NCBI GenBank assembly: GCA_018712725.1
Contig: DVGN01000088.1
Coordinates: forward strand, 12,715-76,714
Source of the DNA: Candidatus Scatosoma pullicola
Lineage (GTDB): Bacteria > Bacillota > Clostridia > Christensenellales > Borkfalkiaceae
DNA length: 64,000 bases
Direction: 5' to 3'
Of the stretch, positions 10,642 through 47,962 are shown piece by piece (positions within the stretch are counted from its first letter, which is position 1; each line of letters begins with the position of its first letter). The notes beneath the pieces were generated by a model. It had not been told where the DNA came from. It was given only the letters and a program-made list of their open reading frames with translations, and did not search any database. Both the position numbers and the translations under genes were made by a program.

Positions 10642-10730
10642 AAGGTTGAAAAACAGGGCGAAAAATACGACAGACGCAACCCTGCCCCCGTCGTTTTGGA
10701 AAATGCGGGGCGGGGAAAGGAGATAAGGAC

Positions 10731-11630
10731 ATGATTACGGACGCATTGATCGAAAGGATCGTCGGCATGAAAAATCCCACCTGCGTGGGGCTGGACACCT
10801 CTTTTGACTATCTCCCCGACGAAATGCGGGCGGGGGTGAAGGATTTCGCGGGCGCGGCGGAGCGCATTTTCGACTTCAACAAGACGCTCATCGACCGCCT
10901 GTACGACGTCGTGCCCTCTGTCAAGGTGCAGATCGCCTATTACGAAATGTACGGCGTGCCCGGCCTGAAAGCGTTTGAAGAGACCCTCCGCTATGCGGCG
11001 GAAAAGGGGCTGATCGTTATCGCGGACGCCAAGCGCAACGACATCGGCTCGACGGCGGCGTGCTACTCGTCGGCGTTTTTGGGGGAGACGAAGGTGGAGG
11101 GGAACGCCTCCCGCGCCTTTCCCGCCGATTTCCTCACGGTGAACGCCTATCTCGGCACGGACGGGATCGCGCCCTTCGTCGACGACTGCAAAAAGCGGGA
11201 CAGGGGGATTTTCGTGCTGGTCAAGACCTCCAACCCTTCGAGCGGGGAGCTGCAAAACAAACTTTTGGCGGACGGAACGCTCGTGTACGAATACATGGGT
11301 GCCCTTGTCGAGAAATGGGGGGAGGGGACGGAAGGAAAATACGGCTATTCGGCGGTGGGCGCCGTCGTGGGCGCGACGCACCCCGAAGAGGCGGCGCGGC
11401 TGAGGAAACTTCTGCCCCATACCTTTTTCCTCATCCCCGGCTACGGCGCGCAGGGCGGAAACGCGCAGATGCTCAAATGCTGTTTCGGCGCGGACGGGCT
11501 GGGGGGCGTCGTCAACAATTCGCGCGGGATTCTCTGCGCATACCGCAAGAGGGGCGGGACATATTACGACGCGGCGCGGGCGGCGGCTCTGGACATGCAG
11601 CGCGACCTCGCCTCCGTGCTCGGACTTTGA
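10731..11630 (+). CDS. pyrF: Orotidine 5'-phosphate decarboxylase (long, type 2)
   Basis: 299 aa with a DAKRNDIGST motif, in pyr context. Confidence 0.9.
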   Translation: MITDALIERIVGMKNPTCVGLDTSFDYLPDEMRAGVKDFAGAAERIFDFNKTLIDRLYDVVPSVKVQIAYYEMYGVPGLKAFEETLRYAAEKGLIVIADAKRNDIGSTAACYSSAFLGETKVEGNASRAFPADFLTVNAYLGTDGIAPFVDDCKKRDRGIFVLVKTSNPSSGELQNKLLADGTLVYEYMGALVEKWGEGTEGKYGYSAVGAVVGATHPEEAARLRKLLPHTFFLIPGYGAQGGNAQMLKCCFGADGLGGVVNNSRGILCAYRKRGGTYYDAARAAALDMQRDLASVLGL

Positions 11631-11645
11631 CGGGGAGGCGAAAAG

Positions 11646-12398
11646 ATGAAAGACTATCGCGCGGAAATCCTGTCGGATGAACAGATCGCCCAAGGCGTTT
11701 ACGAACTCGTCCTCCGCCTGCCCGGAGAGGTGAAGGTGCGGGCGGGGCAATTCGCGTCCGTCGGGGTGCGGGGGCATCTCCTGCGCCGTCCCTTTGCGAT
11801 CTGCAAGGCGGAAGGGGAACGCATTTCCCTCTGCTTTCAGGTGCGGGGGGAGGGAACGAGAAATCTCGCTTCGATGGGGGCAGGGGAGAGCTTACAGGTC
11901 CTGATGCCCCTCGGCAACGGCTTTTTTGTAGAGAGGGACGAGAAAAGAGTGGCGCTGGTCGGCGGGGGCGTCGGGATCTTTCCCATGATCGCCGCCCTGC
12001 GGGAGTACGCGCCGGCCAAAGAGGTGTTCGCCTATATCGGGTTTCGGAACAAGGAGGCGGTGTGCGGGCTGGAAGAATTTGAAAGGGCAGCCCGCCTGAA
12101 AGCGGTGACGGACGACGGCAGTTACGGGGAGAAGAAAAACGCCGTGCAGGCGTTCGAAGAGGATCTGCGGGCGGGGATCCGCCCGGACGTCGTTCTCTCC
12201 TGCGGGCCTCTGCCCATGCTGCGGGCGCTGAAAGAGGTGCTGGAAAGGGAAAAACTGCCCGGGTTCGCGTCCCTGGAAGAGCGGATGGGCTGCGGGATCG
12301 GCGCCTGTCTCGTGTGCGTGTGCGACCTCACGGACGGGCAGCACGCGCGGGTGTGCAAGGACGGGCCGGTGTTCCCGATCGGGGACGTCGTTCTCTGA
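11646..12398 (+). CDS. pyrK: Dihydroorotate dehydrogenase electron-transfer subunit
   Basis: 250 aa with RRPFAI FAD-type motif and C-terminal CGIGACLVCVC Fe-S cysteines. Sits immediately upstream of pyrD. Confidence 0.9.
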   Translation: MKDYRAEILSDEQIAQGVYELVLRLPGEVKVRAGQFASVGVRGHLLRRPFAICKAEGERISLCFQVRGEGTRNLASMGAGESLQVLMPLGNGFFVERDEKRVALVGGGVGIFPMIAALREYAPAKEVFAYIGFRNKEAVCGLEEFERAARLKAVTDDGSYGEKKNAVQAFEEDLRAGIRPDVVLSCGPLPMLRALKEVLEREKLPGFASLEERMGCGIGACLVCVCDLTDGQHARVCKDGPVFPIGDVVL

Positions 12399-12419
12399 CG
12401 GGCGGAAAAGGAGGGCATT

Positions 12420-13331
12420 ATGGCGGATTTATCGGTCAATCTCTGCGGCGTAAAGTTGAAAAACCCCGTGATCGCCGCGTCGGGGACGTTCGGGTTCGGG
12501 CGGGAGTTCGACGAATTGTACGACATAGGCCGTCTCGGCGGCGTGTCCACGAAGGGGCTTACCTTAGAGCCGCGCGCCGGCAATCCCACCCCCCGCATCG
12601 CGGAGGCGCGGGGGGTCATCCTCAACGCCGTGGGATTGCAGAATCCGGGCGTCGGACACTTTATCGAAAACGACCTCGCGTGGCTGAAGGGCAAGGGCAC
12701 GGCGGTGATCGCCAACGTCGCGGGAAAGACTCTGGAGGACTATGCGGGCATCTGTGCCCGGCTGGACGGCCTGGTCGATATGATCGAGCTGAACATCTCC
12801 TGCCCCAACGTGAAAAGCGGGGGCATGGCGTTCGGCATCCGTCCGGAGAGCGTGGAAGAGGTGACGCGGGCGGCAAAATCCGCCCTTTCGGCAACTCCGC
12901 TCATGGTCAAGCTCTCCCCCAACGCGGAGGACATCAGAGCCAACGCGCGGGCGGCGGAAAAGGGGGGCGCGGACGCCCTTTCCCTCGTCAATACCTTTAC
13001 GGGGCTGGCGATCGACATCGAGCGGCGAAAGCCCATTCTCGCCAATGTCACGGGCGGCGTTTCGGGGGCGGGCATCCGCCCGATCGCGGTGCGGATGGTG
13101 TACGAAGCGGCGCATGCGGTGCAGATCCCCGTCGTGGGCATGGGAGGCATCACCTGCGCGGAGGACGCCGTGGAATTTCTGATGGCGGGCGCCGTCGCCG
13201 TGCAGGTGGGGACTGCCAATTTCACCGATCCCTATGCCTGCCCTAAGATCATCGAAGGGCTCGGCGGCTGGTGCGACGCCCATGGCGTGAAAAGGGCGGC
13301 CGAACTCACGGGCGCGCTGCGCCTGTCCTGA
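12420..13331 (+). CDS. pyrD: Dihydroorotate dehydrogenase (class 1B) catalytic subunit
   Basis: 303 aa with IELNISCPNV and GGVSGAGIRPIA motifs. Confidence 0.93.
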   Translation: MADLSVNLCGVKLKNPVIAASGTFGFGREFDELYDIGRLGGVSTKGLTLEPRAGNPTPRIAEARGVILNAVGLQNPGVGHFIENDLAWLKGKGTAVIANVAGKTLEDYAGICARLDGLVDMIELNISCPNVKSGGMAFGIRPESVEEVTRAAKSALSATPLMVKLSPNAEDIRANARAAEKGGADALSLVNTFTGLAIDIERRKPILANVTGGVSGAGIRPIAVRMVYEAAHAVQIPVVGMGGITCAEDAVEFLMAGAVAVQVGTANFTDPYACPKIIEGLGGWCDAHGVKRAAELTGALRLS

Positions 13332-13413
13332 AATCGGGAATAAAGAAAGCGCAGAAAGGACAAAAATAAAAAATGCGGGGCGCTTCGTGCCGCCGCGGAC
13401 GGGAGGAGAGATC

Positions 13414-46439: not shown

Positions 46440-46465
46440 TTCGATATTTCCCGTCTCCCCTGATA

Positions 46466-46546
46466 TGGTAAGGAGCGTCGTCTAACTTTCATGCCTCCCC
46501 TTTTGGAAAGGGGAGGTGTCACGAAGTGACGGAGGGGATAAGAAAG
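46466..46546 (+). repeat. Partial modular repeat (module A only)
   Basis: GCCTCCCCTTTTGGAAAGGGGAGGTGTCACGAAGTGACGGAGGGGATAAGAA. Confidence 0.85.
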
Positions 46547-46785
46547 CCGGTTTTCGAAACAGCAAATTCGAAGCGCTGAAATCAATCCGCAAAAAGGGCG
46601 TCACTTGTTATGCACTTTTTGCCTTTGTAAAAAATGGAAATAAGGTGAAACGAGCGGCAGCGCCGCGAGAGAGGAAAGAAACCGGCAGTCAGCCGTATGG
46701 TGTGCCGCCGGTGTCTGTCCTGTATAAATTTTTCCGCAGACTCTCGTTAAATTTTTTCTTCGAAAAAATTTAACGAAACGGAGCT

Positions 46786-46938
46786 GTAAGGGGAGGTGTC
46801 ACGAAGTGACGGAGGGGATAAGAAAGCTGATTATGACGGGAGCAGGGCAGAGATGACGGAATTTTTCCATGTCGAAACCCGAACAGACAATCCCTCAGTC
46901 GGCTATCGCCGCCAACTCCCTTTGCACAAGGGAGCCAA
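46786..46938 (+). repeat. Modular hairpin repeat element, copy L4
   Basis: 5'-truncated module A (AAGGGGAGGTGTCACGAAGTGACGGAGGGGATAAGAA) plus module B (GAACAGACAATCCCTCAGTC-CGGCTATCGCCG-...CTCCCTTTGCACAAGGGAGCC). Confidence 0.85.
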
Positions 46939-47128
46939 AGTTGGGGCTTTGCGGACGCTCTTCGCGTAAGGGCGGTATTGAGAATGTCGCTGTCATGAGA
47001 TCTTTGACATTCATGTCCCAAACGGCGGAAAAGAATAAATCGGGGCAAAACGGCGGAAACTGAAAGGAGAACTCTTCCGGAAGTTCGTCCGCCCAAACAG
47101 AAACTTTTTTCGGGAGGATCGCATACAA

Positions 47129-47962
47129 ATGAGTAGATTCGGATTTATCGGCACGGGACATATGGGAAGCATGCTCGCGGAAGCGGTCGGCAAAAATTTC
47201 CCTCCTTCGGAAATTCTTCTTTCCAACCGCACCCGTGCCAAAGCGGAAGCGTTGGCTCAAAAACTCGGCTGCCGCGCGGCGGACAACGCCGCGGCGGCGA
47301 AAGAGGCGGAATATCTCTTTCTCTGCGTAAAGCCGCAGACGATGCCCGGATTGTTTTCGGAAATTTCTCCGATTCTGCGGGGCAGGGTTGCGGCGAACGA
47401 TCGTTTTATCCTCGTGACGCCGGCGGCGGGACTGACCATGGCGGCGATTGAAAAACTTTGCGGCGTTCCCGTCCCCGTCATCCGCATCATGCCCAACACC
47501 CCTCTCGCGGTGGGGGAAGGGCTGATCCTTTGCGCGGCCAACGAAAGGGTGACGAAAGAGGAACTGTCCCTTTTCTTCTCGGCGCTGCAGGGAACGGGCA
47601 GGGTAGACCTGACGGAAGAGAGCGGGATCGACGCGGCCGGCATTATCACCGGCTGCGGTCCCGCCTATGTCTTCCGGTTTATGGAAGCGCTCGCGGCGGC
47701 GGGCGAAAAGCTGGGGGTATCTCCGGATAAGGCAAAGCTGTATGCCGGACAGACGGTCCTGGGCGCGGCGAAACTCGCCCTCTCTTCGGGGGATTCGCTC
47801 GGAAGTCTCTGCGACGCGGTCTGCAGCCCGGGCGGAACGACGATCGAAGGGGTGAAGGCGCTGGACAGGGGCGGAATGACGGAACTTGTCAGCGCCGCCG
47901 TATCCGCGTCCTACCGCCGCACACTGGAACTTTCCCGGACGACGTCCCGCCCTGCGAAATAA
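47129..47962 (+). CDS. proC: Pyrroline-5-carboxylate reductase
   Basis: 277 aa with N-terminal Rossmann FIGTGHMGS and a GGTT...KA C-terminal region. GGGAGGA RBS. Confidence 0.9.
   Translation: MSRFGFIGTGHMGSMLAEAVGKNFPPSEILLSNRTRAKAEALAQKLGCRAADNAAAAKEAEYLFLCVKPQTMPGLFSEISPILRGRVAANDRFILVTPAAGLTMAAIEKLCGVPVPVIRIMPNTPLAVGEGLILCAANERVTKEELSLFFSALQGTGRVDLTEESGIDAAGIITGCGPAYVFRFMEALAAAGEKLGVSPDKAKLYAGQTVLGAAKLALSSGDSLGSLCDAVCSPGGTTIEGVKALDRGGMTELVSAAVSASYRRTLELSRTTSRPAK

Follow-up and report, generated by a model that had tools for sequence, protein, structure and literature searches.

The properties that uptake sequences have in common were listed by Findlay and Redfield in 2009 (PMC2817400), and for the DNA uptake sequence (DUS) both intragenic copies and family-level dialects have been described (PMC3630211). 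We analysed a stretch of 64,000 bp from Candidatus Scatosoma pullicola (contig DVGN01000088.1, positions 12,715 to 76,714; called the window below), in which a G-rich word with the core GGGGCAGGG recurs in genes and in spacers. In its extended form the word is about 100- to 180-fold in excess, and it is shared with related gut Clostridia. On our tentative reading of the analysis, it may be an uptake-sequence-like recognition word, of the type of the DUS or of the uptake signal sequence (USS), kept up by biased uptake or recombination. In the literature searched the word was found only in unrelated primers, and no paper on it was encountered.

The excess in the window was evident at every word length. 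The core GGGGCAGGG was counted 16 times against 1.0 expected, and CAGGGTTG was the top over-represented 8-mer (10 against 0.58 expected under an order-4 Markov model). The 11-mer GGGCAGGGTTG, present 9 times, ranked first when compared with 3960 composition-matched 11-mers, which had a mean count of 0.05. Copies with at most 2 mismatches to the 18/21-mers numbered 15, against 0.15 in shuffled sequences. All 12 copies reported in the initial annotation of the window were recovered, with offsets of 1–2 nt (Table 1), and the four long identities it had noted between copies were exact (23/23, 22/23, 18/18 and 21/23). The near-copies GGACAGGGTTG were likewise present, at 810, 18080 and 37960, and the A/T run that had been placed 10–14 nt past the word was recognised as A/T-rich positions +22 to +27.

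The over-representation claimed at that time exceeds codon usage. When synonymous codons were shuffled within each gene, which was the codon-aware null model suggested with the claim, 0.07 sense-coding copies of GGGCAGGGTTG were obtained against 5 observed, and none of 500 shuffles reached 5. The tripeptide Gly-Arg-Val is not itself enriched in the window (8 observed, 8.3 expected). Four of these 8 tripeptides are coded exactly by GGC-AGG-GTT and two more by GGC-AGG-GTA/G, in a window where AGG makes up 14% of the Arg codons and GTT 7.7% of the Val codons. A codon or dicodon artefact was ruled out by the synonymous and codon-order shuffles and by the codon choice at the Gly-Arg-Val sites.

The conserved unit is longer than first reported. 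The consensus in the genus of the window spans about 37 nt, aAAA.Gg..GGGGCAGGG[A/T]T[T/G][T/C]GACGA.CGcAAAttt, and the unit of about 27–37 bp is bipartite and asymmetric. It consists of the GGGGCAGGG core, a 5-bp variable segment and a second box (ACGA-N-CG-CAAA), with an A-rich stretch 6–9 bp upstream and an A/T run downstream. The two forms that had been distinguished are alike except for the five bases that follow the core, which are TTGCG or TTGAG in one form and ATTTG in the other. Similarity between copies stops abruptly at the ends of the word, within ~37 nt, with no terminal repeats and no target duplications; positions +33 to +38 of the genus copies are unconserved. Inverted (dyad) pairs of the word were seen neither in the window nor in 293 kb of genus DNA. 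Folding of 82 copies revealed no consistent fold (mean z = -0.05) and ruled out a conserved hairpin, about 8 of the 82 being full hairpins. No known RNA family was found in the window with Rfam at gathering scores. A sigma-70, sigma-54 or extracytoplasmic function (ECF) promoter was rejected on reading the sequences, which have no -10 element at the proper spacing and the wrong GG-to-GC spacing.

An exact scan with GGGGCAGGGTTGMGNNGA of one genome per GTDB species returned at least 118 loci. About 44 loci among the matches listed came from some 30 gut metagenome-assembled genomes (MAGs) labelled Candidatus Scatosoma or uncultured Clostridia/Clostridiales, with a G + C content of 43–56%; in such DNA the chance expectation of the 11-mer is below 1 per genome (estimated from base composition). 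All figures given below for these low-GC relatives refer to the matches listed, in loci of at most 8–22 kb each. Their 52 copies stand in unrelated contexts and agree at positions that the search had left free: A at -9 to -7, G at -5, A at -4 and GG at -2/-1, and further T at +14, A at +17 and A/T at +23 to +26. A second scan, for metagenome contigs with the type-B 18-mer, yielded about 52 contigs assigned to the genus of the window (tetranucleotide correlation >0.84), which after removal of redundancy comprised 293.5 kb with 83 copies, a partly ascertained set. Overall, the MAGs sharing the word range from 43 to 60% GC, and by extrapolation each genome would contain hundreds of copies. In a viral collection the word gave 20 single matches, and since this is background level only, an association with phages was ruled out.

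The window was compared with four syntenic relatives (contigs and relatives are designated by L numbers), namely L122 (83% Acn identity, GC 60%), L123 and L124 (77–78%) and L125 (71%). The one copy that recurs in them is that in icd, which L122 has in full and L124 in part. At the acn site the relatives code the same Gly-Arg-Val as GGG-CGC-GTA/GTC, and at the proC site the window and L122 differ by a cluster of changes, including three amino-acid replacements, all toward the word. The acn and proC copies thus arose where they stand, by substitutions in Gly-Arg-Val sites that were already there. Neither the acn leader nor the icd-proB spacer has the word in L122. With 4 copies in 22 kb, L122 carries the word about as densely as the window, but elsewhere, showing that the positions of the copies turn over while the word is kept. 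In the ksgA orthologues of three low-GC species, and again in the iscS-like orthologues of three species, the block is invariant including its synonymous sites, in flanks that are only ~55–80% identical. The codon shuffles, the codon choice at Gly-Arg-Val, the acn and proC sites and these invariant blocks all support the earlier suggestion that the constraint acts on the nucleotides and not on the protein.

Within the genus 58 of the 83 copies (70%) are intergenic, though ~77% of the DNA is coding, and 25 lie within genes. A called upstream gene was available for 54 spacer copies, 40 of which lie downstream of a co-oriented gene, half of these starting no more than 35 nt past the stop. Five copies have the TGA stop within the upstream flank AAAATGACG. 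Many spacer copies precede an ordinary terminator hairpin or the ribosome-binding site of the next gene, or lie 5–60 nt ahead of the next start. On a given contig the copies tend to point one way. Nine spacer copies are antisense to both neighbouring genes, contigs L197 and L232 carry antisense copies only, and in L216 and L197 all copies are on the C-rich strand, antisense to the genes. In the low-GC relatives ~41 of the 52 copies (~79%) are within genes, which are conserved genes with the word on either strand; about 22–25 copies are sense and 19 antisense to the host gene, and 11 are intergenic. A reading-frame bias was observed there. GGC-AGG-GTT is the frame of 21 of 25 sense copies, in part necessarily, as the other two frames contain stop codons, and ~14 of 20 antisense copies share a single frame. 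At +13 to +15 these relatives mostly have TTG, ATG or GTG, and some of the copies stand immediately in front of real starts. However, the flanks of antisense and in-gene copies are like those of the others, the start-codon-like triplet at +13 included, and a general role as a ribosome-binding site plus start was therefore ruled out.

Because orientation does not track transcription, an RNA or operator role is unlikely. An element acting on the transcript or on regulation (a regulon operator, an element of the 3' untranslated region (3'UTR) or terminator, or a ribosome-binding context) would agree with the many spacer copies that have a stop codon on one side and a terminator hairpin on the other, or are placed shortly before the next start, as well as with the start-like triplet and the relatives' copies that abut real starts. 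We nevertheless hold it to be highly improbable: the near equality of sense and antisense copies inside genes and the nine spacer copies antisense to both neighbours largely refute it. Also against it are the lack of positional conservation near acn, icd or proB in L122, the absence of an Rfam match or conserved fold and the unrelated functions of the genes with copies. The regulator operator proposed in the initial annotation was not sustained, given that a relative whose Acn is 83% identical lacks the intergenic copies of the acn 5'UTR and the icd-proB spacer and that copies are also present inside unrelated genes, on either strand. The leading idea at that stage had been a polar chromosome word, which would be either an FtsK-orienting polar sequence (KOPS) or SpoIIIE recognition sequence (SRS), or a Chi site for AddAB/RecBCD. 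The core equals GGGNAGGG, same-contig copies tend to co-orient, and most copies are on the G-rich, presumed leading strand. As a count the strand bias is real, since the plus strand of the window is favoured 20:8 by the core and 12:3 by copies within 2 mismatches, but it does not go beyond that of composition-matched words. Taken together, the 55 other permutations of GGGCAGGG fall on the plus strand of the window in 78% of cases (455:126), against 71% for the motif (Fisher p = 0.36 to 1.0). In the relatives 38 of 52 copies (31 of 43 loci) are on the G-rich strand, 72% for the motif against 75% for the control permutations, and in genus spacers between co-directional genes 76% of the motif copies are sense against 74% of the control words. 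The coding DNA of the genus gave the sole Fisher p < 0.05 (p = 0.03), with the motif less biased (55% sense) than the controls (68%). The orientation counts (71–76% on the G-rich or sense strand) thus equal those of composition-matched controls and are not equal numbers both ways; in this sense the orientation of the word looks neutral, and the bias is what any word so G-rich shows in a GC-skewed genome. Since permutations were equally or more biased in three data sets, the strand bias is no evidence for a translocase-guiding word, and polarity of the KOPS or Chi kind was rejected as its explanation, with the leading strand read from the GC skew of short pieces. The bare octamer GGGCAGGG is only 2.4 times as frequent as its average permutation and is not the commonest one; the anomaly is the 20–37-bp extension, which KOPS do not need. 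Known KOPS, SRS and Chi sites measure 5–8 bp against the 27–37 bp conserved here, and in some contigs (L216, L197) every copy is on the C-rich strand, so that we consider a polar word very unlikely. As a general caution, no polarity role should be put forward for a G-rich word until its strand bias has been compared with that of words of the same composition.

Another candidate is an extragenic repeat module resembling repetitive extragenic palindromes (REP) and bacterial interspersed mosaic elements (BIME), or an attachment (att)-like recombination site. The word would then be a module of mosaic intergenic repeats, bordering gene-sized indels and spread by dedicated or illegitimate recombination. 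This is unlikely in our view, even if the intergenic majority of genus copies, their clustering just past stops with the TGA inside the flank, the ~8 full-hairpin copies and the exact 18–23-mers common to copies all agree with it. The earlier idea of a third module of a repeat family holds for the copies at 21667, 21976 and 46839 and for several in sister contigs, which lie within a mosaic repeat GACGGAGGGGATAAGAA...CCGAACAGACAATCCCTCAGTC; most copies are solo. Also in agreement are the extra gene that L264 has between direct copies, compared with L167 and L244, and the sharing of flanks: L148 and L163 have only the right flank in common and break at the motif edge, and the copies in L216 share ~50 nt, indicating that some copies belong to a longer repeated unit. 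However, there is no general hairpin, ~30% of the genus copies and ~79% of those in the low-GC relatives are inside conserved genes on both strands, coding copies came about by substitution and not by insertion, and the similarity ends within ~37 nt without terminal repeats or target duplications. In addition, direct-repeat indels are possible at any dispersed repeat, and some of the breakpoints are in low-coverage contigs and may be assembly joins. Improbable as well is a binding-site array, orientation-neutral, density-dependent and without DNA uptake, that would serve a clade-specific nucleoid-associated or chromosome-organising protein. The same facts that point to a DNA-level, orientation-neutral, density-dependent word fit such an array, and the flanking A tracts suggest DNA bending. 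Known site arrays (parS, NBS, matS, SBS), however, are palindromic and number tens rather than hundreds, and an array gives no reason for copies to be forced into genes despite rare codons and amino-acid changes.

The uptake-sequence-like reading is favoured because the facts match the property list of Findlay and Redfield 2009 (PMC2817400) and, in addition, the dialects of the DUS (PMC3630211). These facts, observed directly, are the excess, the extended consensus, the distribution over the clade, the in-place origin, the positional turnover, the nucleotide conservation inside genes and the lack of polarity beyond composition. An uptake or recombination signal had been among the roles offered in the initial annotation, and it fits best of these. 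The word would be a clade-specific recognition word in double-stranded DNA, for which the copy number per genome matters and not site or direction. New copies would be formed by point substitution where this is tolerated, in spacers, especially just past stop codons, and in permissive protein loops of the Gly-Arg-Val kind, and they would be kept or spread through a bias favouring DNA that carries the word. A component of the DNA-uptake/transformation machinery might prefer word-bearing fragments, as with USS and DUS, and homologous recombination would then multiply the word in the gene pool until copies are numerous. The existence of a protein that recognises the word, and a bias in uptake or recombination as the process, are inferred.

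Several points weigh against this uptake-like reading. No competence genes were linked to these genomes, we know of no sequence-specific uptake in Firmicutes, and the terminator-forming dyad pairs typical of intergenic USS and DUS were not seen. The density of ~1 per 4–5 kb in the window is below that of the classic uptake-sequence cases, and in the low-GC relatives it is roughly 1 per 40 kb (8 extra copies in ~320 kb of ascertained loci). The leading replication strand was inferred from the GC skew of 8–64-kb pieces only. The two subtypes share exact 18–23-mers, and a one-gene indel is bounded by direct copies (L264 versus L167); a repeat element or recombination site fits these observations at least as well. 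It is rather doubtful that the word is the first sequence-specific signal of DNA uptake or transformation bias outside the Proteobacteria, a bipartite, asymmetric ~37-bp word recognised by a component of the uptake machinery in uncultured gut Clostridia (the Scatosoma-related clade), with lineage dialects as barriers to gene flow among species; to our knowledge, such signals have been described only in Pasteurellaceae and Neisseriaceae, both Proteobacteria. If the word is read by uptake or recombination machinery, it would imply natural transformation with self-recognition in abundant uncultured gut Clostridia. Pull-downs and uptake assays could in that case start from a defined 37-mer, which would also allow gene flow and species barriers to be followed in metagenomes. 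As a taxonomic signature the word is strong whatever its function, and it is of use in binning and in recognising foreign DNA in these genomes.

The individual copies in the window are listed in Table 1. The window belongs to a metagenome contig (ENA, several samples). It has a G + C content of 60%, and on its plus strand G exceeds C and A exceeds T. Its genes include rpoB/rpoC, the pyr operon, galK/galM, Pnkp-Hen1, acn-icd-proBA-proC and sbcCD. The nearest proteins to its Acn are from uncultured Clostridia, one of which, at 72% identity, carries the source label Aristaeellaceae. The copy in the acn leader sits downstream of a TTGACA-N17-TATAAT promoter, and the orthologous place in L122 has no copy. 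No copy is present in rpoBC. The part from 47.6 to 64 kb, which has a lower G + C content (55–57%) and is strain-variable, contains zero copies within 2 mismatches (P = 0.012, post hoc). Polysaccharide-synthesis genes, a tRNA-Ser(GGA) and a DnaB_2-domain protein are encoded there (47600-64000). The Hen1-Pnkp RNA-repair gene pair (PF12623, PF16542; 29918-33905, plus strand) has copies on both sides, at 29816 and 33938.

Table 1. Copies of the G-rich word in the 64-kb window, with the 12 copies listed in the initial annotation marked (its near-copies are left unmarked).
Type	Position	Strand	Initial annotation	Sequence	Location and remarks
B	21667..21689	+	yes	GGGGCAGGGATTTGACGACGGCA	intergenic, inside mosaic repeat
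B	40838..40860	+	yes		acn leader, 17 nt before start codon at 40877; 23/23 identical to copy at 21667
B	44011..44033	+	yes	CGGGCAGGGATTTGACGACAGAC	begins 3 nt past icd stop
B, degenerate	33422..33442	+		GGGGCAGGTATTTGACGACCG	within pnkp
A	21976..21997	+	yes	GGGGCAGGGTTGAGGAGACGGA	intergenic, adjoins mosaic repeat
A	42678..42699	+	yes		within acn (T-G-G-R-V-E-A-T), in frame GGC-AGG-GTT
A	43089..43106	+	yes		within icd; common to L122, in part to L124 (GGGCAGGGTAGAG)
A	47379..47396	+	yes		within proC; amino-acid changes relative to L122 accompany the copy
A	29816..29838	+	yes		20 nt past stop of SIMPL gene; full hairpin GGGCA...TGCCC, as in few copies
A	33938..33960	+	yes		33 nt past pnkp stop
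A	34042..34059	+	yes	TGGGCAGGGTTGCGTTGA	annotated start of short-chain dehydrogenase gene
A	26564..26586	-	yes		spans stop of 72-aa open reading frame, 23 nt before start of AraC-family gene; co-oriented with these minus-strand genes
A	10671..10688	-	yes		pyrC-pyrF spacer, antisense to both flanking genes
Degenerate	15015..15032	-		GGGGCAGGGGAGAGACGA	antisense within galK
Degenerate	18079..18096	+		CGGACAGGGTTGCGCCGA	within ThiF-family gene
Degenerate	37959..37976	+		TGGACAGGGTTGCGTTCA	antisense within ABC-transporter gene
Decayed	46839..46856	+		GGAGCAGGGCAGAGATGA	in second mosaic-repeat copy (46824-46900, 74% identical to 21652-21728)
Weak variant	60188..60205	-		GGGCAGGGTATTGACGAAC	antisense within sbcD

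Members of the mosaic intergenic repeat family are found in the window at 6337-6640, 21595-21970, 35712-35904 and 46489-46956, and also in sister contigs. Its modules include the hairpins CCTCCCCTTATGGTAAGGGGAGG, GACGGAGGGGATAAGAA, CCGAACAGACAATCCCTCAGTC and TCCCTTTGCACAAGGGAGCC, together with 40-nt tandem units at 6504-6640. In L264 (1631-2879) a gene of the AAT/C45-peptidase family (PF03417) is located between two direct motif copies, the last 14 codons passing through the second copy; L167 and L244 join the same flanks via a single copy. The two copies in L216 (minus strand, 185 and 1611) are 1.4 kb apart, and the ~50 nt that they share are upstream flank (cgagaaatattccgaaatcggaaaatttatttttacaaaaCGGC). 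A second repeat of ~95–150 nt (...GTACACTCCC...CGCGCTTCGCGTCCGACGAGCGACTGACGCTTCAAACTTCG) is present in the window at 46164-46293 and 46330-46443 and in L146 and L147 at about 17080-17250. L146 and L147 lose collinearity exactly at their copy of this repeat, by rearrangement or an assembly join. An open reading frame of 876 aa at 54682-57312 (minus strand), with no Pfam match on record, contains six or more 78-nt tandem repeat units (...GATATCGTGCCGCC...CATAGTAAACGT), and its length varies between strains (977 against 866 aa in L146 and L147).

Thirteen low-GC contigs (33–50% GC; L151, L155, L161, L162, L174, L175, L190, L195, L200, L212, L222, L238 and L242) carry a conserved structured element of ~150–270 nt that starts, perhaps by chance, with the same 18-mer (GGGGCAGGGATTTGACGA). 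It is laid out as GGGGCAGGGATTTGACGAG, a variable hairpin, ACTCGTATAGTCACCCTGCA, a variable part and GCGTCTACCTATTCCGCCACCCC, and the closing stem covaries (flank+GGGG with CCCC+flank). Read on the reverse strand the element looks like a tRNA and is situated a short way upstream of a gene start; neither ARAGORN nor Rfam gave a match in it. A tRNA or tmRNA origin of the type-B 18-mer was rejected, the tRNA-Ser of the window not matching and both programs being negative on these low-GC elements. Of the two contigs annotated, L212 encodes RecT and L242 has a Tad2-like match below threshold; a phage origin of the element is only a guess.

Compared with known systems, the word resembles KOPS (FtsK) and SRS (SpoIIIE) in that its core GGGCAGGG fits the KOPS consensus GGGNAGGG and that it is G-rich and mostly on the G-rich strand. 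It differs from them by the absence of skew beyond composition-matched words, by its 27–37-bp unit and by a ~100-fold excess, against a modest excess of KOPS. From Chi it differs in lacking both co-orientation beyond composition and a 5–8-nt unit of single orientation. REP sequences are palindromic and strictly extragenic. Like REP and BIME of enterobacteria, the copies in the genus number hundreds, are mainly in spacers past stops, are combined with short repeat modules and form occasional hairpins. The word, however, is mostly non-palindromic and is also found within conserved genes, on both strands and in many species, and no Y1 transposase of the REP-associated tyrosine transposase (RAYT) type was seen among the window genes scanned.

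With the USS of Pasteurellaceae the word shares its asymmetry, hundreds of copies and a short strict core in an extended consensus of ~30 bp with A/T-rich flanks. Further likenesses are copies in genes as well as spacers with a relative depletion in genes, a reading-frame bias, a mutational origin in place and a family-wide distribution with subtypes (PMC2817400). The differences are the Gram-positive-type Clostridia host, the lack of dyad-pair terminators, the lower density and a G-rich core giving a composition-driven strand bias; preferential uptake of the word is hypothetical. The DUS is 10–12 bp long, is read by the minor pilin ComP and often forms inverted pairs in terminators. The unit described here is longer and single, and its reader is putative only. 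Like the DUS of Neisseriaceae, it is a family-wide word with lineage variants, common in genes and with spacers especially permissive (PMC3630211). After the core the low-GC relatives use TTGCGTTGAA, and the genus of the window uses TTGCGRCGA or ATTTGACGA, followed by GCGCAAA, just as the dialects of the DUS are lineage-specific (PMC3630211).

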